Below, piece after piece: positions 8,351 to 53,535 of a stretch of 64,000 bases of DNA. Where the stretch lies: UHGV virus genome UHGV-2025275; one strand, written 5' to 3'. A program made the translations under genes and the position numbers. Below the pieces are notes generated by a model. It did not search any database. It saw only the letters and a list, made by a program, of their open reading frames with translations, and was not told where the DNA came from. This DNA comes from a virus. Position 1 is the first letter of the stretch; each line of letters opens with the position of its first letter.

Positions 8351-8881
8351 ATGCCCAATACCATTACCGATATCACCTACGGGATACCTGCTGAGGTCTG
8401 GCCGCGCGATTACTCAAAAGTAGAGGCGTCGTTGATGTTCTGGCGCAAGGAGCAAATTCCCGTCAAGGTCACGATGGAAGATGGCCAGGTGTTCTGCATG
8501 TACGTTCAGGGGACGATGTCCTCCCGTAACAAGGTAGATCTATGCCCGGCGCCGTTCGACAAAGACAATCGTGTAAGGTTGCCACTTGAGCGAATCAGCA
8601 CTATCGAGTCAGGTGTAAATGACGCTGTCACCCATGATTTCGTTGGTCGCGTAACCGTACATCCAGACTATGTTGATAACCGGCCATCCCGCCGTGATTT
8701 CTTTAAAATTTGCCGCCAGGCCCACGAGAACCAGAAATCAGTAAGGGTCTACATGGCGGACGGCCGCGAAATTGAAGGTGTGTCACTTGGCGTCGACGCT
8801 TGTCAGGTCACACTTGCCGTTGGGAACGGGCGAAAAATGATCGTCCTGTTTGATTGGGTTGAACGAATTCTGCCGTTTTAG
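8351..8881 (+). CDS. hypothetical protein with internal duplication
   Basis: 176 aa. Two similar segments (PVKVTMEDGQVF... / SVRVYMADGREIEGV...). Confidence 0.4.
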   Translation: MPNTITDITYGIPAEVWPRDYSKVEASLMFWRKEQIPVKVTMEDGQVFCMYVQGTMSSRNKVDLCPAPFDKDNRVRLPLERISTIESGVNDAVTHDFVGRVTVHPDYVDNRPSRRDFFKICRQAHENQKSVRVYMADGREIEGVSLGVDACQVTLAVGNGRKMIVLFDWVERILPF

Positions 8882-10418: not shown

Positions 10419-10422
10419 CCAC

Positions 10423-10450
10423 CAGCGCCCACTATGGGCGCTTTTTCCGT
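10423..10450 (+). terminator. rho-independent terminator (second copy of AGCGCCCActatGGGCGCT)
   Basis: Hairpin followed by TTTTTCC. Confidence 0.6.
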
Positions 10451-10998
10451 TTCAGGATCTCCACCATAACGCGCCAACAATGGCGCGTTTTCTTTTATCT
10501 GGCGTTCACTCATTCACACCAAAAATAAGCGCCATAAACGCGCCAATTTAACGCTTTTTTACGTGTGGTAGTACATACCCATTACACACAGTAAAAAACA
10601 CGTTATAGCGCGTTTAAAAGCGTTTTAGCGCGTGGCTTATTTTGTCGTGTCGTGGGCGTGATCGTCTGGTGACGCGATCCGCGCTATCCTTCGGGGCGTG
10701 TCGGCAATATTGGCGCGATCCGTGGGCGCTCACGTATCATTAGCACGTTGGCGCAACGTGTACGCGCTAACAATGCAGCGCTGGACGTATGGCGCAAAAA
10801 TAGCTTATGTCCACCAGCTGGCGACGATTCTGGCGTCTCCCTCTATACAAATTTTTCCCATGAGGCGACCCCCGCCGTTTCCCGAAAATTTTCTGGCCGT
10901 TTCCCGTCGGTTGCCCGGATGGCTTTCTGCCCGTTCCTGAATTTCCCTGCGGGAGCTGGTGGACGGAAAGAAAGGGGCATTTCCAGCCCCCTCCCCTC

Positions 10999-11481
10999 TT
11001 ACTTGCCAGCCAGTATGTGAATCCGATTACTGGCTGGCATCTCTTTCACGAACTCCCCGCAAGTGACCTTCCAGGAGTCGATACCGGCTTCGTAAATGAC
11101 GTTTTTGCACTTAAGAGCATTGTCAGCGATCCGCACACCCTGAGCGGTTGCTTCCTGGTCTGTAAAGTCGAACCCTGACTCTGTTTTGATCCACACAGCA
11201 ATCTGTGTTGCGAGCTCGATGAGTTTTGACTGACAGAACCGCCCGCTTCGAACCGGGAAGATAAACACCCCGAATCCTGAGGTGGTGACATAAGCTTTTT
11301 CGAAGACACGCGTGAATCGACGGTTGCAAATGATGTCGTTGGCGATCTGCTGCTTCTCTTTCCCGGACAGCTGGATGGTCTCTTCTTCGCGCCAGGCGCC
11401 CAGGATGTTCTTTTCAATATCGGAGTATGTGACAGAGATGGTGCCATGCGCGGGAGTGTTTACAGTGGCGATATAGTTCAT
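10999..11481 (-). CDS. hypothetical protein
   Basis: 160 aa. Class-1 promoter motif at 11495-11531 directly upstream. Confidence 0.5.
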   Translation of the reverse strand: MNYIATVNTPAHGTISVTYSDIEKNILGAWREEETIQLSGKEKQQIANDIICNRRFTRVFEKAYVTTSGFGVFIFPVRSGRFCQSKLIELATQIAVWIKTESGFDFTDQEATAQGVRIADNALKCKNVIYEAGIDSWKVTCGEFVKEMPASNRIHILAGK

Positions 11482-11494
11482 TGTGATAATCCTT

Positions 11495-11531
11495 TAAACA
11501 ACTTGTTTTCTCGTTGGTTTAATTATCGCAA
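11495..11531 (-). promoter_or_regulatory. class-1 promoter/operator-like motif
   Basis: TAAACAACTTGTTTTCTCGTTGGTTTAATTATCGCAA. Confidence 0.5.
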
Positions 11532-11686
11532 TGGGTGTGAGGCGTCCAAGCGTTCTGTTTCGGCAGCTGGTGGCCGTCGGGAAGTCGGTGGGTGTTTCGG
11601 TAGCCTGGCGGTAAGAGGTGGGTGTTTTTAGCCTGCGGGAAAGCAGGTGGTAATTGAGGGCCACCAGCATCGGTGGCCCTCCCCTC

Positions 11687-11968
11687 TCAATGAAGTAATC
11701 CGATGTCGATGGTGTCGCCTGAATCTGTCACGCGGATCATCAGCATAGCGAAGGCATTCAGTGGATAGCCGGCGTGCCATTCCGGGAAGCGGTCATCGCG
11801 CATGAAATCGGCAATGTCATAAACGCTATCCTGATAATGGAAGAAGCGGGAGCTGGTTTGTTCGTCCGGTTCGACGTGATCCATTTCTTTCTGCTCGGCC
11901 GGCGACAGGTCAAGCCAGGATTCCAGCCATACGTTTTCTGCTTTCGGGGAGATGGTGAAATCGGTCAT
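11687..11968 (-). CDS. hypothetical protein
   Basis: 93 aa acidic protein. Class-1 motif at 11987-12023 ends 19 nt upstream of the ATG. Confidence 0.45.
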   Translation of the reverse strand: MTDFTISPKAENVWLESWLDLSPAEQKEMDHVEPDEQTSSRFFHYQDSVYDIADFMRDDRFPEWHAGYPLNAFAMLMIRVTDSGDTIDIGLLH

Positions 11969-11986
11969 GTTCGTTTCCTCACTGCG

Positions 11987-12023
11987 TTAATAACTTGTTT
12001 TCTTGTTGGTGTTATTATCGCAA
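11987..12023 (-). promoter_or_regulatory. class-1 promoter/operator-like motif (near-consensus copy)
   Basis: TTAATAACTTGTTTTCTTGTTGGTGTTATTATCGCAA. A partial second copy lies at 12037-12058. Confidence 0.5.
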
Positions 12024-12094
12024 CGCAGGAGAGGCATAAAACAACTTGTTTACGGGTTGGGGAAAATGGCGCGGGTTACGCGCCATTGGCTGGT

Positions 12095-12502
12095 TTACTG
12101 GACGTTGTAGACGGACTCAGGCAGATACTCTTCCAGAGAGCCGCCAGACACAATGGTAATGCCGTATGAACCAACCCAGGTATTGTTGGCGCCCAGGTTG
12201 CCCTCGATCATATCCTGAACCTGTGCCATCAGGTTTTCGAAAATGGTCTTCGGGTCTGTTCGATAATAGGCTTCAATGGCGGCCAGCAGAGTGTCCGAAC
12301 CATTTTTCACTGACTGCTCGCCGACGGCATAAACCTTCGAGCGATCTCGCTTAAGAGTTGTGCGGGCCAGCTGGGTGGTCACATGCGGAACAGCCGATGC
12401 ATCACGGAACTGAACGGTCAGCTGGGCCAGTTTATTGCCTTCTTCGTCAGTGCTGGATGCGTAGTAAAGGTCAAATACTAAATCTTCTTTGGTCAAACTC
12501 AT
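12095..12502 (-). CDS. hypothetical protein
   Basis: Start placed at ATG 12502 (MSLTKEDL) with RBS GGAGG. Class-2 palindrome at 12539-12558 upstream. Confidence 0.5.
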   Translation of the reverse strand: MSLTKEDLVFDLYYASSTDEEGNKLAQLTVQFRDASAVPHVTTQLARTTLKRDRSKVYAVGEQSVKNGSDTLLAAIEAYYRTDPKTIFENLMAQVQDMIEGNLGANNTWVGSYGITIVSGGSLEEYLPESVYNVQ

Positions 12503-12561
12503 TTTTACCTCCATGTAAATGCGTCGTAATACTATCGCCGTAGGTAAGTACTTACAATACA

Positions 12562-12590
12562 AAAAAGCCCCGAAGGATCGACGGGGCTGT
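12562..12590 (-). terminator. rho-independent terminator (minus strand)
   Basis: GCCCCGtcgatccttCGGGGC followed by TTTTTT on the minus strand, after the end of 12622..12933. Confidence 0.55.
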
Positions 12591-12621
12591 CGTAAATTCG
12601 ACTAATCTGTGTTGCACATGA

Positions 12622-12933
12622 CTATGCAATGGCGAGGGTTGTTGCGCGTTGAATTTCCTGCTGGGCGACCTTGTTAACTTCCAGTAAAGCCAACTCCAGA
12701 TCTGACTCAGGCCAGATAACTTGTTTAGCTACCCACCCTTTCCCACTATGGCGCCGGACGTTCATTACGATGCGCTTGCGAGAAGTTTCGCCGAAGACGA
12801 CAACGGTTTCTTTGAAAAGTCGGATGGCTGTGCCGTTGGCCACTATGTCCACTAAAGTGATCGAACCGAGTACTGCAGGTTTGTCTTTGCGAGGCTGGAG
12901 TTTATCCAGTTTCAAAATCATCTCGGTATTCAT
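12622..12933 (-). CDS. hypothetical protein
   Basis: Start at ATG 12933 (MNTEMILKL) with RBS ACGGAG. Class-1 motif at 12944-12977. Confidence 0.45.
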   Translation of the reverse strand: MNTEMILKLDKLQPRKDKPAVLGSITLVDIVANGTAIRLFKETVVVFGETSRKRIVMNVRRHSGKGWVAKQVIWPESDLELALLEVNKVAQQEIQRATTLAIA

Positions 12934-13069
12934 TACACACTCCGTAAACAACTTGTTTTCTTGTTGGTGTAAATAATACCAGTGTGAAAACGGCCACCAA
13001 GCGAAGCGTTCCGGCATTCCGCTGGCCGCAGGCTACATTCATTAAAAAGCCACCTGCTGGTGGCCATCG

Positions 13070-13282
13070 TTAATCTTCGTCAGGGAACTCCTCTTTCACT
13101 GCGGCCACCAGCTCCCGCTTCTCTTCATCAGTCAGCAGGTGCCAAACATCCTTCCCTTTGGGTGACTCTCCCTTAGCTGGTACAAACGACCATAATTTAC
13201 GGGTTAGTGCTGGCCCTACGCCATCAAGACACTCAGCCAGCGAGTCCACGCTCCATACTTCCACAATCACAGGCATATCCAT
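13070..13282 (-). CDS. hypothetical small acidic protein
   Basis: 70 aa, RBS AAAGGAGAGAG. Confidence 0.4.
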   Translation of the reverse strand: MDMPVIVEVWSVDSLAECLDGVGPALTRKLWSFVPAKGESPKGKDVWHLLTDEEKRELVAAVKEEFPDED

Positions 13283-13294
13283 TGTCTCTCTCCT

Positions 13295-13513
13295 TTATCT
13301 GGACTCTGACGTGGTGCAGTTCCACGCGACGGACATTGCGTTGTCCTCGATATGAAAATCAAACGTGCCCTCGCGATACCCTTCGCCAATCAGCGTACCA
13401 ATGCGCCCAGCGACATCCGCAGAGCGGATAACGTCATCCAGAGAGATCTGGAGTTCGTCAGTAAATGTCTCTTCTCCGCAAAGGGTGATGCTGATGTTCA
13501 AATGCTTGTACAT
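13295..13513 (-). CDS. hypothetical small protein
   Basis: 72 aa, RBS AAAGGAGAAAAA. Class-1 motif at 13529-13565. Confidence 0.4.
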   Translation of the reverse strand: MYKHLNISITLCGEETFTDELQISLDDVIRSADVAGRIGTLIGEGYREGTFDFHIEDNAMSVAWNCTTSESR

Positions 13514-13575
13514 GTTTTTCTCCTTTGTCTAAACACGTTGTTTTCTTGTTGGTGTTATTATCGCAATAAGACATA

Positions 13576-15090
13576 GGCGAAAAAGCATTTTGTATCGGGG
13601 AGAACTGGAAAACAGTGAGTATCCGGGAGCGTATCGGGAGCGCTTTTTACATTATTCTTCTCAACGCGCACCGCAGGGCTGGTGGGCAGTATTTTCCTCT
13701 TCCCGAAAACCTACTGAAACAGCTTGTGACCCTCGAACGCTCTGGCAGAATACGTATCAGCAGCTGCGCGCAGCGGGAAGAAAGCCACCCGCGCACCAAA
13801 GGGTGTACCGCCAGAGAATCAGCCGTCCCCGCGGCATTTTGTCTCTATACCGGCACACACCCTTTCCATGACGGGAACCCAGCCGTTTCCCGAAAAACCT
13901 CCAACCGTTTCCACTCAGGGAGCCCGCCTTTCCCCTGCGGGGACGCTCCCGATAGATTTTCGCGGTGGCCCTTTCACTCGTTCGACCGCAGGGATGTTAC
14001 GGGGGATAAAATCAGGACTTGAATAAATACGGGAAAGGGAGCGATCCCCCTCCATCCTCTCTCTCTTATATCTGTGTTCTTTCCTGACTCGAATAACCTC
14101 TCTTATGGGGACTCGTATCTCTCTTATTAGCGCTCTATACGGTGACCATTCGTATGGGAGAAAAGGCGACTTTCTTCTCTCTGCCGGTAAGTGGTTTTGC
14201 AGATGTTGTAGAGGTGGTTGTCTTGTGGTTTTCCTCTGGTCTGTATTCTTCGTTTTGGGGATAGTTCTTCTCTGTGTATGGAGTGATGGCGTGTGCGCTT
14301 TTCCTTTCGTTTACCTTGAGAGGTGGAAGTGTGGGTGATGTGGTTTCTGGTCTGTTGTCGTTCTCCGCATGTGAAGTAATGGCGTTCTCTGCTTATCAGG
14401 AATTTGCGTTATCTTTCGGGGTAAGAGTGGGTAAACGAGATGGCGCCGGGTACTGTTCTGGCCTGGTCTTGTCTGGAGTTTCTTCCCGGGTATTCTCTTC
14501 CGTGTATTGGGGAATGGCGTTCAGAGAAATTGCCTTTCTCTCGTCGCTATTCAGTGGTGGTCGAGGTTTGTTTCATGGGGTCGGTAGCCTGGGGCAAAGA
14601 GGTTGGTCTTTTCGGTAGCCTGGCTGGAAGAGGTGGGTATTGCCTGGGTGTGGGGTAATGGCAGTTCCTTTTCTTCGTTATCTTGTTTTGTTGTTTTCTT
14701 ATTTCCTAAAACAATTTGTTTATATGCTCATTAAACGCAACGAGAGCCATTCTGAGCGTGTCTGTTTTGTGGTGCTATCAGGAGTCGTTTTTGGCGTTTT
14801 CGTCGCAGGGTGTTGGTCTCTGGTACGCTTCTTAACGGATATAAGAAGTGGCATGGCAAAACGTCAACTTTCGAGACCAAATCAGGGTAAAGCGTTGACT
14901 TTTCATTGATGTGTTATTTATTTGTTTTCTTGTGGGTGTTATGTGCGTAAAAGCCTTGCCGCGCCTGGAGTGTATGAGGTTGGAGGGTAGGGAAGAAGGG
15001 CGATCAACGAGTTCTTATAGAAATCCTCAATTAGTGACCGCCAATGTCAACGTGTTGCAGGCTATGGCTGCGCGTTAACTATCCGCCAGG
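13576..15090 (-). ncRNA. candidate long non-coding transcript / repeat-rich non-coding region (CA-rich on the transcribed minus strand)
   Basis: 1.5 kb with no minus-strand ORF of 60 aa or more. Plus-strand ORFs are low-complexity. Two class-1 promoter motifs (14706-14745, 14912-14947) point into it. Degenerate ~100-130 bp tandem repeats sit at 14160-14560. Tandem CGGTAGCCTGGNNGNAAGAGGTGGGT at 14594-14660. Confidence 0.35.
14912..14947 (-). promoter_or_regulatory. class-1 promoter/operator-like motif with no protein gene downstream
   Basis: TGTTATTTATTTGTTTTCTTGTGGGTGTTATGTGCG. Only a 24-codon ORF follows before the CA-rich non-coding stretch. Confidence 0.45.
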
Positions 15091-15495
15091 CTATCGCATA
15101 GAGCTGCTCTCTAACTTCCGTATCCATCCCCACTCATTGGCCAGTGCCTTTAACTCAGCTGGTATGTTGTCAAATACGGTGGCTATAAGGAGATGATCAG
15201 GTAGCTTACCCAGCTCGGCATCACGATCAACAGGAACCACGTCGTAAGCGGCATCCAGTATCATCTTGATATTGGCGATCGCCGCTTCGAAGATGTTGAA
15301 TGTACGCAGTTCATCTGCCCAGCTATTGTCACGCATTCCGGCACGAACAATCCAATCATATTCTGTGCCGTGTGCCCAGTTCAGTCCGCGATCGGTGATT
15401 GGGTCAAAACAGGCAATTGGCAGTTGTTCAAAGTCTTCCGCGGTAACGTGCGCAGTGCTGATAATAGCTGTCTTGTAGGCTTCAGTAATTTTCAA
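15091..15495 (-). CDS. hypothetical protein
   Basis: 134 aa, TTG start in the ORF track. Class-1 motif at 15511-15547. Confidence 0.4.
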   Translation of the reverse strand: MKITEAYKTAIISTAHVTAEDFEQLPIACFDPITDRGLNWAHGTEYDWIVRAGMRDNSWADELRTFNIFEAAIANIKMILDAAYDVVPVDRDAELGKLPDHLLIATVFDNIPAELKALANEWGWIRKLESSSMR

Positions 15496-16061
15496 TATTA
15501 CTTAAATCTCTTAACTAGTTGTTTTCTTATTTTAGTTATTATCAGAGATAAGAATAGGTAGAAAACATTTTGTTTGAAGCAGTGCGGCTGCCTCGATACT
15601 GTCATAGCGATAATCAGGCGCATAGTGTCAAAGCTAAGTTCAGATGTTAGGGGCAGGGCAAAGTTGAAATGTCCACTTCGTGCCAGGAGCGGAAGTTGCT
15701 AAGTTTGGTCTGCATTAATTTGAAGGGAGCAGAACACATGAGCCAAGAACGAATTTCTGCGAAATTTTTTTCGTGCACCGCGGAGGTGAAAGGTCATAAA
15801 TGGTACGCCAGCACCGACTTTACCTAGCTTTTTTTAAGTTCAGCAGCAAAACCTGCCTTGCAGGTTTCCTGCGTCGGGATAATCGATACTGAACCTTGTG
15901 CATACCGTTCTCATCAGTTAAATTAAAGATTCCACACTCTTTACCGATATCACCTTGGTTCTTGCTTGTGATGCGTTCAGTGTTCAGCGCTGTTTGCTGT
16001 AGCCCTCCAGACTGATTACAGACTGCCTCTTAAAAGCCAATCCTTACTCTAAAGGGAACTT

Positions 16062-17003
16062 ATGAGATTAAAATACTCAGCACTCTTACTCGCCGTTGCC
16101 ATTACAGGCTGTGATAACAAAAAAGACGTGATCGGTTGTTCCTCTGAAATGACCCAGTCAGCTCTCATGGATTTAATAAAAAAATCTGCTTATGAAGGTC
16201 TCTCTGAACAGGTCGACAAATACCCTGACGTCACTAATCAGACCAAACGAAGCGCTTTGGACAAGATTAAACTGACCATCTCTGAAATCTCCACAACTTC
16301 AAGTGACACGGGCAGCACAATGAAAACTTGTGAAGGGACCGTGACGATGACCCTACCTGCGAACGAGTACGCACAGCTTTCTGATGCTTACAGAAAGAAC
16401 TTTAACCGTAATCTCGACAAGCAAATGGAAAGCCTGTCTTTGGATAACAACGCAAACGCCTTTTCAAAACGCATCTCCTACACCGCACAGGCAACCGACG
16501 ATCAGAAAAACGTTTTTGTGAAAGCTACTTCTAACAACCCAATATCAGTGGGTGCCGCTGCACTGACATCGCTTTCCATCATCAACCCGATCGTTGAGCA
16601 GCAAAAAATCCAGCAGGCTAAGGATGCCCAGCGAAGTCAAATTGAAGCGGAACAACAAGCACAACTCAGGGCGCAGCAACAGGATAAATATGAGGCGGAG
16701 CAGCAGGTTCAGCAAACCATTCAACAACAATCCTACCAGCAGCCTCAGCAACAAAAAGCTGACAACCTTGATCAGTCCCGAATGGCTTTTGCGAATGCTG
16801 ACTCTGATTTGAATACCGCTTGGAGCACATTAACACCAGAGAAGAAAAAAGAGTTGCTGCCTTCTCAGCGCCAGTGGATCAAAACTAAGGACGCTATGTG
16901 CGGCAAAGTTTCAATGCAGGGAACAGATGCTGAAGTCAAGAAAATGGTCGACTGCCAGACGCAAATGACCCTTTCAAGGACCGCGTTCTTCAGAAATCAA
17001 TAG
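16062..17003 (+). CDS. lipoprotein with Q-rich linker and C-terminal DUF1311/LprI-like domain
   Basis: Lipobox AITGCD. Gln-rich repeat region. C-terminal SQRQWIKTKDAMCG resembles the DUF1311 (lysozyme-inhibitor LprI-like) motif. Confidence 0.5.
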   Translation: MRLKYSALLLAVAITGCDNKKDVIGCSSEMTQSALMDLIKKSAYEGLSEQVDKYPDVTNQTKRSALDKIKLTISEISTTSSDTGSTMKTCEGTVTMTLPANEYAQLSDAYRKNFNRNLDKQMESLSLDNNANAFSKRISYTAQATDDQKNVFVKATSNNPISVGAAALTSLSIINPIVEQQKIQQAKDAQRSQIEAEQQAQLRAQQQDKYEAEQQVQQTIQQQSYQQPQQQKADNLDQSRMAFANADSDLNTAWSTLTPEKKKELLPSQRQWIKTKDAMCGKVSMQGTDAEVKKMVDCQTQMTLSRTAFFRNQ

Positions 17004-17500
17004 CGGAAACTCCCTTCAATCTGGTGGCCAAGGCTAAGCTGGCGCCAGCGTAATGCGGGATAATTTCAGCCGTTGTTCCATGATGCCCCACGCCGGATAT
17101 TTTACTCGCGGTTAGAACGGGATTTTGGGACGTAAATATTTCATTAAAGGCGATGACCATCATAGTCATCGACTACATGAATTTTCTGTTAAAGATATGC
17201 AAGTATTAAGACATCTTACTTTCCGTGATTACCAATGATGTTAATCGTTGCAGGCACTCAAAACCGTCCACATGAGTCTTGCCCAACCAATAGCCGCCAC
17301 CATACTCTCTCTCGCTGGAAAAAGACGCACTGGCCAGGTTTGAATGTTTAAGTGTCTCGCCTCTGTAGACGATCTGATAACTGGTGTCTTTTCCGCCCAT
17401 TTTATCATCCCAAAATACTGTATATTTAAACAGTTACTCTTTGATGAAATGCAGTCAAGTTTGACAGCGGGGATAATAACTTGTTGGTGAAAACAAATTA

Positions 17501-17524
17501 TTTAAGGCTATATCAATAGCCTTA
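17501..17524. terminator. bidirectional hairpin TTAAGGCTATatcaATAGCCTTAA
   Basis: Perfect 10-bp stem flanked by A/T runs, between the end of 17551..18279 and upstream accessory DNA. Confidence 0.4.
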
Positions 17525-17550
17525 AATTGGTGAAACCAGTTACGACCTCA

Positions 17551-18279
17551 TCATGATTCGGTGGCGTGTGGGTTTTGCCGCTGCAGTGTCTTGACCTGTT
17601 CTTCAAGCTCACGCACATACTCAACGAGAGATCCGCCTGGCGGTATTTGGCACTCTTCCATGAGTTGATAGTAAACGTCGGCTGCCGCGCGAATGTTTGA
17701 GCCTTTGGTTAACTGATCACTGAGCAGTTCGTCACGCTCTTTCATAAGCCGCACGCATTCCCCATTGCGTTGGTCGACTACAGCCTCAAGCTCTGCGATG
17801 CGCTCGCCTGGCGTTTTGCCATCCTTACGTTGAGTCGTAACCGTGAAACATCCAAGTTCAGGAACGTCGTAGTTCAATTCCAGATAGTTTTTTGCACCGT
17901 GTCGAACAAATTCGCCGGCGAACATGGTGGCGAACATGGCAGAGGCCAGCTCTCCGTTAAACAACGACTCCAGATCTACAGGAGTGCCAGCAGCAAGAGC
18001 GGCGCGCGCAGCCTCTATGACATGCATAAACTCATCATAATGTCTGGCGCGCTTCTCCAGCTCTGCCCACTGCTGACTGTTTCGACGCACCAGGTACTCA
18101 ATAAAAATCAGCGCTGATTCGTCGGCGTCGCCTTCAAATGAGACCTTACCCTTATCGACAATAATCGTGCCCACAGCGGTTGGGTTGTTGCCCTGAAGGC
18201 AAAATCTGAAAGGAGTCCCCGTGTTCATCGGTGATACAGCCTGTATATCCATAGAAGTGGCTTTATTCCTGCTTTCCAT
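17551..18279 (-). CDS. hypothetical protein
   Basis: 242 aa, no recognisable motif. Confidence 0.45.
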   Translation of the reverse strand: MESRNKATSMDIQAVSPMNTGTPFRFCLQGNNPTAVGTIIVDKGKVSFEGDADESALIFIEYLVRRNSQQWAELEKRARHYDEFMHVIEAARAALAAGTPVDLESLFNGELASAMFATMFAGEFVRHGAKNYLELNYDVPELGCFTVTTQRKDGKTPGERIAELEAVVDQRNGECVRLMKERDELLSDQLTKGSNIRAAADVYYQLMEECQIPPGGSLVEYVRELEEQVKTLQRQNPHATES

Positions 18280-18340
18280 GTGTTTTTCCCTCTAAGTATC
18301 GCGTCATTATTCTTACATAAAATAAGTATGTGGTTACCTA

Positions 18341-20028
18341 TTATTTTATGCGTTTGAAGACATACACACTGACAGTTATCCCCGTGTCATCAAACTCGCC
18401 TGTGAACGACTTACCTTTGGCGTAGACGAAATTCTCCAGCATCATCCAGTTCAGGGTTGGTGAGTCCCCCGGCAAAACAGCAACAAGGCGCCCGCCGACT
18501 TTAAGATGCTCCAGCGCGGCCAGCGTATGCTCTCTGTGACGGCCAAGAGAGTAGGGCGGGTTCATGACGATTTTGTCGAACTGATAGCCTGCGTTGTCCT
18601 CAGACCACTTCATGAAGTCACAGCAGACCGTATTTGTGTACCCCTTGCCAAGCAGGATATCAGCGAAGAGAGGTGCGACTTCTATGCAGGTAACGTCTTC
18701 CGGATTGGCGTCGATGCAGGCCAACAGATCTCCGCGCCCGGCTTCAGGCTCCAGCAGCTTCTCACCTGGCTTCAGCTCGATGGCTCTGGCAACGTACTCC
18801 GCTATCAAACGTGGGGTAGGGTAGAACTGGTGTGATTTTGTATCCGGTATTAAGCCGGTGGCCACAATCGTATTGAGCGTATGGCCGATCTCATACGGGA
18901 ACTGCCAGTGCTTTTTCTCCTGCACGCCGCCAATGAAGTTCAGTGTGCGCTCAAGCTCTTCCACCTGTGACTTCTGTAGGTTGGAATCAGAGAAGTACCA
19001 GACGCCTTTGTCTTTGCTGAATCGCCCGTCGCGCAGCGCGGTACGAACCGGCTCGGAGATCGTCTTCTGGATTAACCCGAACTCTTTTGGTGCCCGTATT
19101 TTGGGTGCAGTACGGCATGGCGCCGGGATTGCTGCAGGCATACTGTAAGCCAGCACCTCATTCAGCTTCCAGGCCACGTCAGGATGTATTTCAAAGTGAA
19201 CGTTGCCGTTCTTGAACATCTTCACGCGCATCAGGTTTCCGTCGACATTCATCCAGTCACCGGTCTGGCAGTCGTTTGCCCGGTACGCAGCTGATAGCAT
19301 CTCAGTTGTGCGGTTGATGGTGATGAACTCTTTGTGTGCGAAGAAATGAAGCATGACGCGCAGGTCGTCGATGTAGTCCTCTTTCCGGTAGTTCACGCTG
19401 ACGCTGTCCCGCCAGAACTCTGAAATGCAGCTGGCGATGATCAGCCGCTCGCTAAAGCCGTTCGTTTTATTGGTCTTGTGCGCAGGGCTTAGCGCCTTAA
19501 ACAAACCGTACACGCGCTCAGAGAGATATTTATGCCTGTCATTCAGCAGATTGACCATCGTGGGGATGACCGTCTCTGCTTTGAACTCAGGTACGCCAAC
19601 GAACTCCTTAACCTTCATCTGGTAGCCGGTTCTGTCAGTCTTGATGGTTTCCTGCTTGCCTTCTATGAACTGTTCGCGCCACTCATCTCGGCGGGAAGCT
19701 GGCATGATCAGCAGAACGTTTGTCATATCTGTGACCTTCTTCCAGTATTCGGCCCAGATATTCTGCTTCACCCACTCAAGATCGACCTTATCCAGCCAGG
19801 CTCTGTTGAAGCGTGTGCGTTCGTCATCCGGCCGGTGGTTGAGTCGAAGCAGGCGGTTAATCATGTTGTGACGCTCATCGCCATAAACGAAGTCGTGAAC
19901 CTGATGCATGAATGCGATCTCTTTCTCGCACTCGGCCACAATTTCGTGGATGACGTTCATTTCCTGCCGGTAGTCGATATCAGTGTTTGGGGTGATAGCG
20001 TCAATGATGGAAAGGGCTGTATTCATGA
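18341..20028 (-). CDS. DNA N6-adenine (or N4-cytosine) methyltransferase with ~380-aa N-terminal domain of unknown function
   Basis: C-terminal motif I LEPEAGRGDLLA and motif IV IVMNPPYS. Start probably ATG 20028 (ORF track 20044). Class-1 motif at 20037-20074. Confidence 0.6.
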
Positions 20029-20124
20029 TTGCACCATTAAACAAATTGTTTTCTTGTTGGTGTTATTTTCCCAAAGTTGAAAAGGCGTAAAAGCAGCATT
20101 CACAGGCGTTGCAGCTGATTTAAG

Positions 20125-20740: not shown

Positions 20741-20848
20741 GTGTTTTTTCCTTATGTTTTTAAACAAGTTGTTTTCTCGATGGCGTTATTGTGGCGTGAC
20801 TGAAAAGGTGGGCAAACGCTACGTAAAGGCGGACGCCCACACTGACGG

Positions 20849-43448: not shown

Positions 43449-44504
43449 ATGAGCGAAAACGGCAATAAAAACATAGCGATCGTTGAAGCATTCTCAGAAA
43501 CAGACAAAAAGACCGGTGAAGTTGTTACGTTAGTTCCTAACACCAACAACACAGTTCAGCCTGTTGCTCTGATGCGTCTTGGTCTCTTCGTTCCGACGCT
43601 GAAATCGACCGCCAGGGGCAGAAAGGGGCAAATGGTCTCTATGGACGCCTCTGCTGAACTCAAACAGCTGTCTCTGGCCAAAGCCGAAGGGTACGAGGAC
43701 ATAAGGATCTCCGGCGTTCGTCTGGATATGGATAACGACTTCAAAACGTGGGTAGGCATCATCCACGCGTTCGCCAAGCACAAGGTTGTTGGCGACACCG
43801 TCACGTTACCGTTCGTCGAGTTCGTCAGGCTCTGTGGCATACCAACGGCCAGATCGTCCGCGAAGTTACGCAAGCGCCTGGACAGTTCTCTAACTCGTAT
43901 TGCCACAAACACTATCTCATTCCGCAGTAAAGGCTCTGATGAGTATTACGTGACGCACCTTGTGCAGACAGCAAAGTACAGCACAAAGAACGACACGGTC
44001 TCGCTGCAGGCTGATCCTAAGATTTTCGAACTCTACCAGTTCGACAAAAAGGTTCTTCTGCAACTCCGGGCAATTAACGAACTCTCCAGAAAAGAATCCG
44101 CGCAGGCGCTCTACACCTTCATCGAAAGTTTGCCACCTGACCCGGTACCAATCTCGCTGGCTCGCTTACGCGCCAGACTTAACTTAACCAGCCGCACCAT
44201 TACCCAGAACGCGACAGTCAGGAAGGCGATGGAGCAGCTGCGTGAGATCGGCTATCTCGATTACACCGAAGTGAAGCGCGGCAGCTCGGTCTACTTCATC
44301 ATCCACTATAGGCGGCCGAAATTACGCCCAGCACTGCCACCAACTAAAGCTGCGCCTGAAGAACCAGAAGACATCTTGCCTGGTGATGATCAGGAGGACA
44401 TTATCGATGTTGTTCCTGAAGAAAAAGAGGGTGAGATGGTCATGTTGAGCAAGGAAGAACTGGCGATTCTCGAAGAGCTACGCAAGGCAAAAGCTCGCAA
44501 ATAA
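43449..44504 (+). CDS. repA: iteron-binding replication initiator RepA
   Basis: 351 aa gene flanked upstream and downstream by iterons. Acidic C-terminus. Confidence 0.7.
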
Positions 44505-46944: not shown

Positions 46945-47061
46945 TCCCGATCTCCTTCTCATCCGTTGCCGAACAACTATGTGGCGTTGTCACTTTGTAC
47001 TTCTACGGATGCTAATTCCGTATTAGTAACCAATTTGTTTTCTTGTTGGTGATAATACGGA

Positions 47062-47088
47062 AATAAAAAAGGCGTCCAAGTGGACGCC
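47062..47088 (-). terminator. rho-independent terminator (minus strand)
   Basis: GGCGTCCActtgGACGCC + TTTTTT on the minus strand, after the SPFH gene. Confidence 0.6.
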
Positions 47089-48232: not shown

Positions 48233-49309
48233 TTACGCTTCTTCTGTCTCTGCTGGGGACGACTCTTTCGCTCGCCGTTCGTCTATCGCCTGGAGTGCTG
48301 CGATGATTTCCGGGAGTGGCTTCTCGCGGTACATCTCGACGATCTGCGATTTGGTGTATTTCTTATCGCCAATTTCTACACGCCCGCTGGCGTTCTTGGG
48401 CAGGTATCCTTCCTCCAGCATGTACTCAACCAGCGATTCGATGACGTCCAGCCCGCGAGTCGGGTCGAAGTAGAATTTCCATGAGCATTTGCCAAACGGA
48501 GGTGCGACTTTGTTTTTAATGCACTCGGCGCCAACGTCCTGTCCGATCTTCTCTTTGCCATCCTTCATAACGGATGCGCCCAGACGGATGCGCACCGACG
48601 CGTAGAACTTCGGAGAGTCGCCACCTGGAGACGTCGTCGGATCGCCAAACATCACGCCAATTTTGGTACGCACCTGGTTCAAGAAGATGATGCACGCGTT
48701 GTACTTACGCGCCCAAAGCGCCAGAGTAGGGAAGTTCGCACTCGTCGCGCGCGCCAGCGCCGTGTTGTCGTTCATGTTCAGCTGATCTTTGTCCTTCGCA
48801 GTGCCTTCTGCCATCTTGTCGAACTTCTCAGCCTTCGAGTTCGGAACCATCGACGCCAGAGAGTCGGCAACGATGCAGATAGGGGCTGTTTCCGGGATAA
48901 GCTCTTCGTCGCGCACCAGCTTGAGGATTGTGCCGATCAGCTCGACGGAGTCTTCGAAGGTATCCGGCTGTTTGTAGACCCACTGACCGTCGTCTTCGTC
49001 GGCGTTCAGTCCGTTCGCTACCGCCAGACCAACGTCGAAACTGTTTTCGTGGTCAAGGAATACGGCCAGACCATCCTGTTTCTGTGCTGACACCATTGCA
49101 GCCGTCGCCAAAAAGGTTTTACCGGCGCTTGGTGGCCCGAAGACTTCAACGATACGCCCACACGGAAAACCACCGTCGTAACGTCCGGAAATGGCTTTGT
49201 TCAGTGGAGGGAAACCGGAGTCAATCCAGTGGGAGACCTTCTGGATCTCGTCATTGCTGCCGATTTTCTTTTTCAGCGCCAGTGCCAGTGCGGATTTGCC
49301 TTTTGCCAT
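48233..49309 (-). CDS. RecA/UvsX-like recombinase
   Basis: GRIVEVFGPPSAGKTFLA Walker A. RecA-fold core of 358 aa. Confidence 0.7.
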   Translation of the reverse strand: MAKGKSALALALKKKIGSNDEIQKVSHWIDSGFPPLNKAISGRYDGGFPCGRIVEVFGPPSAGKTFLATAAMVSAQKQDGLAVFLDHENSFDVGLAVANGLNADEDDGQWVYKQPDTFEDSVELIGTILKLVRDEELIPETAPICIVADSLASMVPNSKAEKFDKMAEGTAKDKDQLNMNDNTALARATSANFPTLALWARKYNACIIFLNQVRTKIGVMFGDPTTSPGGDSPKFYASVRIRLGASVMKDGKEKIGQDVGAECIKNKVAPPFGKCSWKFYFDPTRGLDVIESLVEYMLEEGYLPKNASGRVEIGDKKYTKSQIVEMYREKPLPEIIAALQAIDERRAKESSPAETEEA

Positions 49310-49311
49310 GA

Positions 49312-49578
49312 TTAGGCTCCTTTTGATTCGTTGATTCGCTTCGAAGCAGCGGCTTCGTCAAACTTAATTGCGTCGTGGTTCAGGTGTTTGGCGACGCGAG
49401 CGATGATCTTCACGACCTGCTCGCTAACCAGCGCGAACTCACGCTCAGTAGCAGAAATGCCAGCAGCGCCCAGAATGTTCGGCAGCGCCACCACAGCGTG
49501 CTCGCCGTGGCAGAATACAATCTCTTTAGCCAGCATGGTTGGCGTAGTTGCCCCGCCATTAATGATGGATTTAAGCAT
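49312..49578 (-). CDS. hypothetical small protein
   Basis: 88 aa ORF between the flap endonuclease and recA-like genes. Confidence 0.35.
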   Translation of the reverse strand: MLKSIINGGATTPTMLAKEIVFCHGEHAVVALPNILGAAGISATEREFALVSEQVVKIIARVAKHLNHDAIKFDEAAASKRINESKGA

Positions 49579-50573
49579 CAGCAGTACCTCTCAAATGGCA
49601 GAACAAACACTTCCAGATCTTCCAGAAACGACCGGAAATTCAGCTCGTAACACATCTGTTCGAAGGCATTCATGTCGCGTGCGCCTTTAATCGACTCGAT
49701 TTCGCTGGGTGGGAATTTTGTGTCGATAAGGTTCATCAGCATCATGTTGCGCTTAAAGGCTTCGAGCATCCGGCAGCCCGTCTTCTCGTTGAAGGCGTTC
49801 TTTGCCAGCTTGTTGAATGCCGTCTTATAGCGACCCTTATTGATGACAATGGAGCCGTCGTTAATGCCGCGTACCATTGCGGCCACGCTTCCCCACTCAT
49901 GAAGCAGCTCTTTCGCGCCACCATCACCAATGCCGCCGACGCCTTTGATGTTGTCCGAGTTATCGCCCTGCAACGCTTTCGCTTCCAGAAACGCGCGTGG
50001 TGTTGGCAGACCTGTCAGCTCTGCGAACTGTTCGAAGTTCACCTGCTTGTGCTTGGCATCTTCACGCAGGCTTACCCAGCTCACATTCTCGCGAACCAAT
50101 TGGAGCCAGTCGCCATCGCCCGTCAGCAGGTAGATGTGATCGACGGTCGGCTGCGGAGCCAGGCGAGAGACCAGCATTCCAGCCAGGTCGTCCGCTTCTG
50201 CGTCCTTTGCAATGAGTTGGTTAACGCCCAGCGCGGTCATCATTTTCAAGATGTACGGCTTCTGGATGGCAAAGCCTTCTTTCATCTTCTTCATATCCGG
50301 GTCGTCATCGCGATTCGCTTTGTACTCCGGGTAGAAGTCGCGACGTTTGTCGCTGAATCCATCCCACAAGATCATTGGCCGGGCATGGAGAATTGAGGCG
50401 TAACGACGAACGTTCTTCACGAAGCCAAAAGCCGCCTGAACTTCCATCTCGCCGTTGTGTAATTTGTCGGATTGCTGGTGGTAATAGCCCAGGCTGTTAC
50501 CGTCCACAAAGAGATAATTCACCGGTACACTCCTTCCAAAAAGTAAGGCGTCCGTAGACGCCTTACTGGTCAC
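49578..50573 (-). CDS. 5'-3' exonuclease / flap endonuclease (T4 RNase H-like)
   Basis: N-terminal LFVDGNSLGYY. 5'-nuclease (PIN-like) and H3TH-like regions. Confidence 0.7.
   Translation of the reverse strand: MTSKASTDALLFGRSVPVNYLFVDGNSLGYYHQQSDKLHNGEMEVQAAFGFVKNVRRYASILHARPMILWDGFSDKRRDFYPEYKANRDDDPDMKKMKEGFAIQKPYILKMMTALGVNQLIAKDAEADDLAGMLVSRLAPQPTVDHIYLLTGDGDWLQLVRENVSWVSLREDAKHKQVNFEQFAELTGLPTPRAFLEAKALQGDNSDNIKGVGGIGDGGAKELLHEWGSVAAMVRGINDGSIVINKGRYKTAFNKLAKNAFNEKTGCRMLEAFKRNMMLMNLIDTKFPPSEIESIKGARDMNAFEQMCYELNFRSFLEDLEVFVLPFERYC
50536..50566 (-). terminator. rho-independent terminator (minus strand)
   Basis: GTAAGGCGTCtacgGACGCCTTAC + TTTTT after the gp32-like gene. Confidence 0.55.
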
Positions 50574-50582
50574 GTTATGGGA

Positions 50583-51611
50583 TTACAGAGCGTCCAGTTC
50601 AGCCAGCAGGTCGTCGAGACCTTCGTCAGCTGGTTCAGATGCAGCGGCAGCTGATGCTGAAGCACTTGCAGCTGCGGCGGCTTCCGGAGCTTTAACTTCT
50701 TCCGGTTTAGTTTCCGGTTTGAACTCAGCTTCAGCGGCACGCAGGATCTCTTCATCAACCAGGCTGGTGGACTCTGGAGCCGGAGTGTGTGCTGTAGCGA
50801 CAGCAGCTGCGCCTTCCGTATGACCAGTGATAGATCCAAAACCTGGCAGTTCAGCAGCGGCTGATTTTGCAGCGGAAGAAATGGCCGGAGAGGACATTGT
50901 TGCTGCCGGAGCCGCGATACCAATCAGACGACCCATAGTGCGAGCCGTAGACAGCAGACGGGTTTCGTCAGCCTGGTTCGCGTATGCGATCAGATCGTGT
51001 TGGGTAGTCCAGAGCTTCTCAGGAATGTCGCCTTTGTAGACTTTACGTTTCGGGGATACGTCGTACTTGGTGTCACGACCGGAACCGGTACGCTTAATCA
51101 GGAACGCATAGCCTTCTTCTTTGCTCAGTGGGTTGCCGATATCATCCGCAATATCTTCGGACATCACTTTGCAGATATCGTCGAAGACCGTAGACGGCAG
51201 CTCAATCAGTTGGCATTTCTCTGCGTCCGCAAAGTCTTCACGCGCAGACAGAACACCGTTGACCAGATAACGAGGTGTAGCACGCATACTGTTAATGCGC
51301 TCTTCCATCGCTTTGTTGCCCTTAAAGCGAGCACGACCTTCCATAACCATCTCACACAGCTGGCAAGCGTGGCCGTGGGTGTGCTGTTCGCAGATGTAGG
51401 CGGTGGTTACATCTTTGCCTTCCTCATTCTGATGCTTAACGTAGTGCATACCGAAAGTCTGGAAGAACACGCCATTCGGGTCGTCCTTGTTCGGAAAAAT
51501 GCGCAGATAGTTATTGCCGTCTTTCAGACGGGTCAAATCAACGTTATTGCCACGTTTAGAAGCAATATCGCCACGGGTCTTGTTAAGCAGATCAAGTAAT
51601 GACTTAGACAT
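50583..51611 (-). CDS. single-stranded DNA-binding protein, T4 gp32-like (putative)
   Basis: 342 aa. Cys/His cluster (CEQHTHGHACQLCE). Strongly acidic C-terminal tail (EPADEGLDDLLAELDAL). Located between the RNase H and recombination genes. Confidence 0.45.
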   Translation of the reverse strand: MSKSLLDLLNKTRGDIASKRGNNVDLTRLKDGNNYLRIFPNKDDPNGVFFQTFGMHYVKHQNEEGKDVTTAYICEQHTHGHACQLCEMVMEGRARFKGNKAMEERINSMRATPRYLVNGVLSAREDFADAEKCQLIELPSTVFDDICKVMSEDIADDIGNPLSKEEGYAFLIKRTGSGRDTKYDVSPKRKVYKGDIPEKLWTTQHDLIAYANQADETRLLSTARTMGRLIGIAAPAATMSSPAISSAAKSAAAELPGFGSITGHTEGAAAVATAHTPAPESTSLVDEEILRAAEAEFKPETKPEEVKAPEAAAAASASASAAAASEPADEGLDDLLAELDAL

Positions 51612-53091: not shown

Positions 53092-53535
53092 TTAAGCGAC
53101 TTTCTTCCCAAAAATGTTGGATAGCGTGACTCTGGTCTGGCGCTTCAGCCGATACTGTCTCACATCGCCAATCTTGTTCACTTCCATAAACTCTTTGGCC
53201 ACCTTCAGTACCAGCCGATTGCGGAACACTTTGAACGCCTCCAACTGTTCCTCTGGGTTATCCGATTCGTAGATCTCCAGCAGATACTGGCACGCCTTCG
53301 GATCTTGCGTTTTAAGCGCCAGCGCTCTGGCACATTTACGTAGGCGACTGATTCTATCGGCTCCATCCAGCCCGGCGAACGCCAGCGCCAAATCTAACGT
53401 GACCGGGCAGTCGATGATTTCCCAGAACTGCGACCGCATGGTGGCCGCAACTGCTTTATTCTGAAAATCCGCAGGGATAGCCACCAGCGCTTGTGCAATC
53501 TTCTGTGCCTCGTTCATGGTGTTCTCTTTGTTCAT
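53092..53535 (-). CDS. hypothetical protein
   Basis: 147 aa, last gene of the dnaE operon. Confidence 0.4.
   Translation of the reverse strand: MNKENTMNEAQKIAQALVAIPADFQNKAVAATMRSQFWEIIDCPVTLDLALAFAGLDGADRISRLRKCARALALKTQDPKACQYLLEIYESDNPEEQLEAFKVFRNRLVLKVAKEFMEVNKIGDVRQYRLKRQTRVTLSNIFGKKVA

Follow-up and report, generated by a model that had tools for sequence, protein, structure and literature searches.

Conserved noncoding element of SSU5-type phage-plasmids

The DNA analyzed here, a stretch of 64,000 nucleotides from the virus genome UHGV-2025275 (hereafter, the window), is a Klebsiella phage-plasmid of the SSU5/pKPHS1 type, as indicated by the matches of the target region and by the gene content of the window. 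Positions 13576–15090 of the window constitute a real, conserved and composite noncoding element that is specific to SSU5-type phage-plasmids. We tentatively read this element as a Rho-type transcription insulator between the cargo genes and the phage-plasmid backbone, accompanied by a DNA-binding array; the involvement of Rho and the insulating role are both inferred, and we would put this reading, the best available, at well short of an even chance.

The minus strand of the region contains no open reading frame (ORF) of 60 amino acids or more, the longest being 50, 49, 46 and 44 amino acids, which confirms what an earlier inspection of the letters alone (the sequence-only reading) had stated. 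ORFs of 40–135 amino acids do occur on the plus strand, and annotation pipelines report such ORFs in several records. The syntenic region was fetched from five diverged plasmids (L005–L009) and from 86 IMG/VR loci, and all relatives obtained, phage SSU5 and pHCM2 among them, have a gene-free gap of 1.4–2.0 kb at the same position. When the window was compared with its relatives, mismatches followed a strong three-base rhythm in each of the flanking genes (p of 1e-4 to 1e-7); codon periodicity of substitutions was absent across 13500–15150 (p > 0.05 in all segments and pairs), also in pairs that did not include the window. No open frame conserved in both frame and position was found on either strand among 14 sequences, the open stretches shifting between lineages. 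With neither a conserved frame nor codon periodicity, the plus-strand ORFs look noncoding, as had been supposed, and a conserved coding frame across homologues, which the sequence-only reading had named as the finding that would speak against it, was looked for and not found. The 24-codon ORF pointed out at 14905–14830 did not hold up either: it is not conserved, its ATG being ACG in relatives.

An unrecognized protein gene, whether in the hydrophobic plus-strand ORFs or in a Pro/Thr/Gln-rich minus-strand ORF, perhaps frameshifted, could appeal to the pipeline annotations, to a 227-codon open stretch on the minus strand of L005 and to several indels that are 12 nt long. However, substitutions lacked three-base periodicity in any pair or frame, and the frame and position of the open stretches change from one lineage to the next, so that we consider the chance of such a gene negligible. 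Stop codons are rare by composition alone, because the plus strand is poor in A and the minus strand poor in T. Coding on either strand, lineage-specific long frames included, is effectively excluded, and the "hypothetical proteins" with which annotation pipelines fill the region are spurious.

The equivalent of 13990–15055 measures 1023–1087 nt in 50 homologues (within ±3%) and can be aligned across seven lineages at 62–86% identity, with many near-invariant blocks. The mean divergence of the region, about 26–30% mismatches per site, lies between that of third codon positions (~41–46%) and that of first plus second codon positions (10–16%) in the neighboring genes. Conservation stops at ~15057, where lineage-specific cargo takes over. 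Position, length and blocks were conserved in all SSU5-like phage-plasmids fetched, in agreement with the earlier suggestion that the region is noncoding and probably functional.

At 96–98% identity and over its full length, the target region matched ~110-kb nonmobilizable IncFIB Klebsiella plasmids and, likewise, Klebsiella phages such as ST13-OXA48phi12.3; at 68–76% identity it matched SSU5-like phage-plasmids of E. coli, Enterobacter, Citrobacter, Cronobacter and Salmonella (including pHCM2, phage SSU5 and Cyrano/pLF82). The 13576–15090 region is present in 859 PLSDB plasmids. Clinical Klebsiella, E. coli, Enterobacter and Salmonella very commonly harbor phage-plasmids of this type, which also carry resistance and other cargo genes. 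A search for distant relatives found homologues of the neighboring protein in SSU5-like elements only, at no less than 56% identity, and when representative genomes were scanned with the boundary block, Kluyvera was the only addition. A 760-bp copy, 93% identical, in large Klebsiella plasmids was dismissed as a remnant truncated by an insertion sequence (IS); it ends at the same right boundary. The GenBank, RefSeq and PLSDB records examined held no feature annotation for the element, and a full-text literature search returned no description of it.

Strand composition and its maintenance

Over ~14100–14900, the G+T content of the plus strand is 0.69–0.70, with a GC skew of up to +0.31 and a T–A skew of up to +0.52. 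This tract is the only 600-nt stretch of the 64 kb to exceed the mean by more than three standard deviations (0.697 vs 0.506 ± 0.031). The sequence-only reading had described the plus strand of the whole region as strongly G+T-rich, which is correct for this tract but not for the left third (13600–14050), which is GC-rich (0.56–0.60) and differently built. The minus strand of the core is composed of A 0.38, C 0.31, G 0.17 and U 0.14. Its C/G ratio is 1.8 over 600 nt and peaks at 2.5–3.5 per 100 nt, compared with a median of 0.96 and a 99th percentile of 2.0 in the window; among the twelve 100-nt segments with the highest minus-strand C/G in the 64 kb, seven fall in the element and three at its secondary copy, described below.

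Even the variable alignment columns of the core are 63% G+T. When polymorphisms within lineages were polarized with the other lineages, those in the core were found to run against the skew, with 55 G>A vs 19 A>G changes and 44 T>C vs 27 C>T changes. Strand-biased mutation was therefore rejected as the cause of the skew: the net flux erodes it, and G>A and C>T changes occur at similar rates per base, so that mutation seems to act about equally on the two strands. Since the skew persists in lineages that are only 62% identical while polymorphisms erode it, it appears to be maintained by selection. A selected skew argues for a function that is read at the single-strand level, in RNA or in unwound DNA, because double-stranded protein-binding sites alone need no strand skew.

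RNA structure and boundary blocks

The minimum free energy of the core minus strand was −18 to −36 kcal per 200 nt, whereas most of the scanned flanks gave −40 to −75; a minus-strand RNA from the core would be rich in A and C and have almost no structure. The proposal of a large structured noncoding RNA (ncRNA) is not supported: Rfam gave no match at the gathering threshold (the best sub-threshold hit scored 19 bits against a cut-off of 58.6), the structure conservation index was mostly below 0.3 and folding z-scores were unremarkable, on both strands. No tRNA or tmRNA genes were found in the region. Covariation, which the sequence-only reading had put forward as a check, was assessed by consensus folding of a 14-sequence alignment (~1,110 columns). 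The consensus energies were −84 kcal/mol for the plus and −54 for the minus strand, and the share contributed by covariation was small, 5.4 and 0.6 kcal/mol, respectively.

Conserved local structures were limited to a hairpin at 14020–14077, an inverted repeat at 14863/14894 and a two-tier inverted repeat in the right block. The hairpin at 14020–14077 is long and imperfect, and owing to its G-U pairs it is stable only as minus-strand RNA (−13 to −25 kcal/mol on the minus strand vs −3 to −14 on the plus strand, in seven lineages). A simple scan called it terminator-like; the hairpin at 14031–14058 is followed by CGUAUUUAUU, which is paired into a longer stem in most lineages. The near-invariant block at 14856–14950 contains the inverted repeat GTCAAC (14863–14868)/GTTGAC (14894–14899), flanked by A/T tracts, and continues with T-rich DNA that looks like a degenerate version of the promoter cassette discussed below. 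The right boundary block (14999–15057), with the inverted repeat GGCGATCA (14999–15006)/TGACCGCC (15035–15042), is invariant in all lineages.

Some further observations concern the edges of the core. The 9-bp inverted repeats CTTATAYC/GRTATAAG, at 14065–14072 and 14838–14845, bracket the skewed core at a distance of ~770 bp and both undergo the same C-to-T change in the Klebsiella lineage, and a third copy, direct (TCTTATAG), is found at 15013–15020. An invertible switch bounded by these repeats was considered and discarded, as the orientation was the same in 50 out of 50 homologues extracted between the two anchors. In K. pneumoniae p2_hvKp18, from a clinical isolate, a natural IS5 insertion at the equivalent of 14823–14831 separates the palindrome-bearing site (see below) from the inverted-repeat block, and the plasmid is still maintained.

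The cargo junction and its expression in a relative

A minus-strand cargo gene abuts the right block in six of six lineages checked (window, L005–L009, SSU5), its end lying only a few bases away from the block. The abutting cargo itself differs by lineage, being DUF5983 here and a coiled-coil protein, MetRS or DUF1380 neighbors elsewhere, and the element sits exactly where cargo differs between lineages. DUF1380 and DUF5983 are families typical of plasmid leading regions. The lineage-variable cargo to the right of 15057 (15091–20044, with equivalents in L005–L009 and L098) includes a large DNA methyltransferase, and the genes adjoining the element are all on the minus strand.

Expression could be followed in Cyrano, a relative that is only 62–68% identical, through the per-gene values in the S1 table of a re-analysis of RNA sequencing (RNA-seq) data from E. 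coli LF82 (PMC9928086). These values are log2(fpkm+5), where fpkm stands for fragments per kilobase per million, with a floor of 2.32; they derive from per-gene counts in five conditions, and the strandedness of counting is not stated in the text consulted (PMC9928086). CYRAN_102, the cargo gene abutting the element, reached 9.2, while CYRAN_103 (an annotated ORF at ~14944–14568 in the window) gave 2.3–4.3 in all five conditions, CYRAN_104 (~14073–13711) gave 2.6–4.7, and CYRAN_105, the next backbone gene, reached 7.8 (PMC9928086). CYRAN_105 is presumably expressed from its own promoter. From CYRAN_102 to CYRAN_103 this is a drop of more than 100-fold, at the level of gene counts of unstated strandedness (PMC9928086). 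In the same table, RNA of the region was near the detection floor also in the macrophage samples where capsid and early genes rise (PMC9928086). By these per-gene values, the element is silent in lysogenic E. coli LF82 between active neighbors, and cargo transcripts appear to stop at its edge. The notion of an abundant sponge RNA is weakened accordingly, with the region at the detection floor in the five LF82/Cyrano conditions tabulated (PMC9928086). One highly expressed LF82 gene, CYRAN_43, was evaluated as a possible match and rejected, since it maps near the integrase and not at the element.

Repeat motifs and arrays

The core (14100–14660), G+T-rich on the plus and A+C-rich on the minus strand, carries copies of a motif of ~35 nt ending in GTAATGGCR. 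Tandem units of ~100–130 bp had been described here, each ending in a TGT(A/G)T.G.G.(A/G)ATGGCGT-like block. The blocks exist (14283–14291, 14376–14384 and 14511–14519, plus a fourth at 14655–14663), are all on the plus strand and are conserved across lineages, with spacings of 93, 135 and 144 nt. However, Tandem Repeats Finder called no 100–130-bp array, only two 11-nt micro-arrays, so the blocks are dispersed copies of a motif and not a true tandem repeat. Of nine GTAATGGCR-type matches in the window, four fall within a single 380-nt stretch. Homology of the 35-nt motif to the repeated promoter cassette seemed plausible by eye and was abandoned, as a profile of eight cassettes gave no match at those blocks. 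The core also shows a weak periodicity of 11.4–12 nt and several independent 12-nt indels.

Two tandem 31-bp units, CGGTAGCCTG-N6-AAGAGGT(G/T)GGT, occupy 14579–14640 on the plus strand; relatives have three. The sequence-only reading had recognized both this pair and its recurrence elsewhere, placing them at 14594–14660 and 11586–11612; the better placements are 14579–14640 and 11595–11623. CGGTAGCCTG lies at 14582, 14613 and 11598, and the window holds six matches to it vs 1.1 expected. In L106, the most divergent lineage fetched, one of three tandem copies reads GCGGTAGCCTG. On the minus strand, the 31-bp units are among the highest C/G segments of the whole 64 kb. The secondary copy at 11595–11623 (plus strand) is single and lies in an intergenic spacer with C>G.

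To the left of the core, an iteron-like array of RCC(G/T)TTTCC sites spans 13859–13990 on the plus strand, with sites at 13859, 13882, 13904 and 13968 and a weaker one near 13926. In the 11 relatives compared there are 2–6 copies each, with spacings of 21–23, 31 or 44 bp (plus one 64-bp gap in the Klebsiella lineage), that is, roughly whole helical turns. Such 22-bp phasing is a geometry typical of proteins arranged along one face of double-stranded DNA and suggests protein binding. The sequence-only reading had not noticed these phased sites, but repeated sites of protein-binding type, which it had proposed, are present. Because the insulator reading leaves helical phasing unexplained, we set the left array apart as a separate DNA-binding sub-element, which might act as a roadblock or in silencing, or else in replication.

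A secondary iteron cluster with a hairpin occurs at 10855–11000 (plus strand), downstream of the gene at 10999–11481; the paralogous iteron-like pair (nhmmer E 2.5e-7) is at 10875/10897, and the hairpin is similar. Together with the single 31-bp unit, this smaller paralogous set of modules brackets an ordinary gene, 10999–11481, and the arrangement is kept in Cyrano and in L106. Because the same modules also flank an ordinary gene at 10.85–11.63 kb, the C-rich unit and the hairpin-plus-repeat module seem to behave as general intergenic punctuation.

A cognate initiator gene adjoining the iteron-like repeats was not found, the neighboring genes encoding small uncharacterized proteins. The region has one DnaA-box match with one mismatch, as expected by chance, and two GATC sites; AT-rich patches, at 14005–14030 and 14668–14738, are only modest, and the GC content of the core is 0.46–0.51. 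A plasmid oriV was rejected, as the RepA iterons differ in sequence and lie 29 kb away. A likeness to oriT/nic sites (F-type GGGTGTGG, R388-type GTATTG, RP4-type ATCCTG) was rejected as well, being limited to 6–8-mers that are not conserved between lineages.

Promoter-like sites

The left limit of the element is the promoter/5′ untranslated region cassette of the next backbone gene (13295–13513), at 13532–13566 on the minus strand. It belongs to a family with nine copies in the window, including, in minus-strand sense, 11497–11531, 11989–12023, 12947–12981, 13532–13566, 15513–15547, 20040–20074, 20763–20797 and 47029–47063. The cassettes consist of a weak −35 box, a 16-nt spacer and a TG-extended GATAAT, then a CA-rich leader, and they precede many small genes. 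A 13-bp palindrome, AAACAA-N-TTGTTT, has nine sites in the window (2243, 11496, 12039, 12946, 14709, 20039, 20762, 21761 and 60955), mostly at cassettes, and is probably the shared operator of one regulator.

The two class-1 promoter motifs that had been reported to point into the region do belong to this family, but both are degenerate. A profile of the eight copies at 11497–47029 scored weakly at 14919–14942 (E 0.003) and recovered only the palindrome at 14705–14726. The latter is part of a promoter-like site at 14706–14745 (minus strand; palindrome at 14709–14721) whose −10-like hexamer varies between lineages.

In the opposite direction, a candidate sigma-70 promoter lies at 13724–13751 on the plus strand (TTGTGA, 16-nt spacer, TGg-CAGAAT). 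Both hexamers, the TG extension and the spacing are conserved, and the spacer sequence is variable. Cyrano RNA over this part is low in the S1 table (PMC9928086). In SSU5/pHCM2-type lineages, the stretch bearing the promoter in other lineages is replaced by a plus-strand ORF of 80 amino acids (SSU5_110) with a good ribosome-binding site, in the left part of the gap (1769–2011 in L007, 2909–3151 in L098; equivalent to ~13610–13800). A simple sigma-70 consensus scan of 11000–16500 found no promoter-like site in 5.5 kb vs 5.4 ± 2.7 in shuffles, despite the many short transcription units.

The insulator reading and its alternatives

Under the reading we favor, the region would be a composite cis-acting boundary element of the SSU5-type backbone, with the insulator in its larger right part (~14020–15057). 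A transcript leaving the cargo gene would meet the conserved boundary hairpin block, would then enter ~0.8 kb of untranslated, nearly structure-free RNA in which C is about twice as abundant as G, the kind of tract that loads Rho, and would lastly encounter the long G-U-dependent hairpin of the minus strand. Cargo transcription, active in lysogeny, would thereby be kept out of the repressed backbone cassettes to the left. Rho-dependent termination calls for at least ~80 nt of untranslated RNA with C>G and little structure, and the core minus strand has these properties. The composition and the selection acting on it agree with an insulator, as do the constant gene context, the drop in RNA and the reuse of the C-rich and hairpin modules at a second intergenic site. 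If true, this reading would explain how these phage-plasmids tolerate frequent cargo exchange without de-repressing lytic genes.

Several facts weigh against an insulator, nonetheless. A Rho loading site needs ~80–100 nt, not 0.8 kb, and for such a site neither the length nor the 31- and 35-nt motifs would have to be conserved. In LF82 the RNA drops within ~110 nt of the stop codon, which makes the boundary hairpin block, or unstable RNA, a better candidate for the cause than the long tract, and the RNA-seq values come from a relative that is 62–68% identical, with strandedness not stated in the text consulted (PMC9928086). The phased repeats, the conserved rightward promoter (13724–13751) and the ops-like plus-strand CGGTAGCCTG are also left unexplained by an insulator.

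Among the roles put forward by the sequence-only reading, a pac region found no support, the terminase genes being 12 kb away, and a lytic origin or a centromere-like site is possible; the region is not the plasmid origin, for RepA and its iterons are elsewhere. The main rival of the insulator, a region initiating lytic-cycle or recombination-dependent replication, seems to us unlikely, if by no means far-fetched. Initiators would occupy the phased arrays, and loading or priming would take place in the strand-segregated, hairpin-free core, perhaps switched on from the rightward promoter in the manner of T4 or ColE1-type R-loop origins. Such an origin would account for the 22-bp-phased sites (2–6 copies per lineage), the second array of 29–31-bp units and the second, smaller group of the two motifs at a distance of 3 kb, which resembles P4 ori/crr, as well as for the conserved rightward promoter that precedes a tract with a GC skew of +0.3 to +0.5. 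The T4-like toolkit (RecA/UvsX-like, gp32-like and 5′-3′ exonuclease proteins encoded by the window, and in relatives also a UvsW-like helicase), the silence of the region in lysogeny and the retention of the element in phage SSU5 also suit it, and a lytic origin is the sole necessary phage-plasmid cis site still without a location. On the other hand, DnaA boxes are not enriched and GATC sites number only two, the core is not AT-rich (GC 0.46–0.51), helicase and primase genes are far away in Cyrano, and no cognate initiator was found. An R-loop prediction by G-cluster and G-density rules was negative: the G content (0.29–0.34) is below the usual values for R-loop zones, the G-cluster initiation motifs are at the distal end of the skewed tract instead of at its start, and the excess of T over A implies a pyrimidine-rich rightward RNA, which disfavors RNA–DNA hybrids. 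We regard as rather improbable a further idea, in which the 0.7-kb segregation of keto and amino bases between the strands is itself the functional device, a selected zone where neither single strand folds and which would act in lytic growth. It might be an RNA decoy tying up Rho or another RNA-binding factor, or a hairpin-free landing zone, positioned by the flanking phased arrays, where UvsX/gp32 could start recombination-dependent replication; either would represent a new kind of phage cis element.

The helically phased, direct-orientation arrays with their dispersed secondary copies, the two ParB_N-domain proteins and P-loop ATPases encoded at 3.8–5.8 kb, and the silence of the region between active neighbors could instead reflect a platform for a phage-plasmid DNA-binding protein that silences or organizes DNA, through KorB/ParB-like spreading or a roadblock, as an N15-like dispersed centromere, or as a titration site for copy number or incompatibility. 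We hold this to be improbable, since it gives no account of selection on strand composition across 0.7 kb, variable columns included; in addition, the true partition genes (ParA, in Cyrano) are elsewhere and the IS5 insertion at ~14823–14831 is tolerated in a maintained plasmid. Should a lytic origin or a silencing platform be correct in place of the insulator, it would identify a cis site so far unassigned in the SSU5-type family. Doubtful, in our view, is a trans-acting, unstructured A/C-rich minus-strand ncRNA of ~0.6–0.9 kb, made in lytic growth and titrating Rho, Hfq or the FljA-like protein described below. The selection-maintained A+C richness is the composition least able to fold, the repeated motifs are of single-strand type and share one orientation, the length is conserved, and the core sits in a "gene slot", with the same upstream unit and downstream hairpin-plus-repeat module as the gene 10999–11481. 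Yet RNA is at or near the detection floor in the five conditions tabulated, including macrophage samples with rising capsid and early genes (PMC9928086), the promoter-like sites have weak −10 elements that differ from lineage to lineage, and no partner protein was found. Equally doubtful is the idea of decayed, duplicated intergenic cassettes without a function of their own, conserved through backbone linkage. Such cassettes would share their motif vocabulary with other intergenic spacers, as is observed, and would agree with the intermediate mean divergence (~26–30% per site), but near-invariant blocks persist in lineages at 62% identity, length is kept within ±3%, phasing is preserved, and the skew persists though recent mutations erode it.

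Comparison with known systems

Like Rho-dependent terminators and rut sites (lambda tR1 rutA/rutB), the element is an untranslated, C-rich, G-poor and weakly structured tract following a gene, across which the transcript level seems to collapse. The element is ~10 times longer, however, with a conserved length and internal repeats. Iteron arrays (P1 oriR/incA, F, pSC101, lambda ori, P4 ori/crr) similarly have 4–6 short direct repeats phased by ~22 bp and a smaller second cluster a few kilobases away, but the element has no adjacent initiator gene, DnaA boxes, GATC cluster or clear AT-rich unwinding element, and its iteron-like sites are unrelated in sequence to the iterons of its own RepA.

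The consensus of the ops element recognized by RfaH is GGCGGTAGnnTG, and CGGTAGCCTG, in tandem, matches its core (positions 3–8) and pause dinucleotide T11 G12 (PMC5995543), as in ops/JUMPStart. In most copies, however, G1/G2 are absent, and the conserved unit extends well beyond ops. Moreover, CGGTAGCCTG is on the nontemplate strand only for rightward transcription, downstream of which lie noncoding DNA and then cargo in antisense, with no long operon. Given this strand context and the lack of an operon downstream, we do not class CGGTAGCCTG as an ops element.

As in the T4 R-loop origins oriF/oriG, a promoter is followed by a noncoding zone in a phage encoding UvsX-, gp32-, RNase H- and UvsW-like proteins; T4 unwinding elements, in contrast, are short and AT-rich, whereas here the zone is 0.7 kb, 46–51% GC and keto-skewed. 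In T4-type phages, promoter-early stem-loop (PeSL) cassettes form a repeated promoter cassette before each small gene of a plastic region, and the likeness to them would concern the flanking promoter cassettes, not the ORF-free core. Sponge RNAs of the CrcZ type are A/C-rich and weakly structured, with repeated motifs, as the core would be, but the element is about twice as long, and neither expression nor a partner protein was found. On the whole, the single parts of the element have familiar counterparts (a rut-like tract, hairpins, operator-bearing promoters, iteron-like arrays); their combination and the selection-maintained 0.7-kb strand segregation are unusual.

Gene content of the window

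The window encodes terminase, ParB-like proteins, a Rep3-type RepA, DNA polymerase III alpha, and RecA/UvsX-like, gp32-like and 5′-3′ exonuclease proteins. RepA, with Rep3 domains, is at 43449–44504; together with its own iterons it lies at 42.9–45.0 kb. A T4-like replication/recombination set (RecA/UvsX-like, 5′-3′ exonuclease/RNase H-like, gp32-like, DNA polymerase III alpha) is located at 48233–51611 and 53532–57050 on the minus strand, and relatives add a UvsW-like helicase and SbcCD (L106, 11396–12396). This gene set suggests recombination-dependent lytic replication.

The plus-strand gene at 8351–8881 is a full-length match to FljA, the repressor of phase-1 flagellin (PF03614, E 1e-86), and is conserved in SSU5-like elements. 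In Salmonella, FljA binds an mRNA leader, and by analogy the FljA-like protein might act on the CA-rich leaders of the repeated cassettes.

The Chi sequence GCTGGTGG occurs 21 times in the whole window, vs 1.7 times expected from shuffles. Eight of the copies are within 3.3 kb (10419–13685), just to the left of the element, and several lie inside intergenic hairpins or adjoin iteron-like clusters (10955, 13678).

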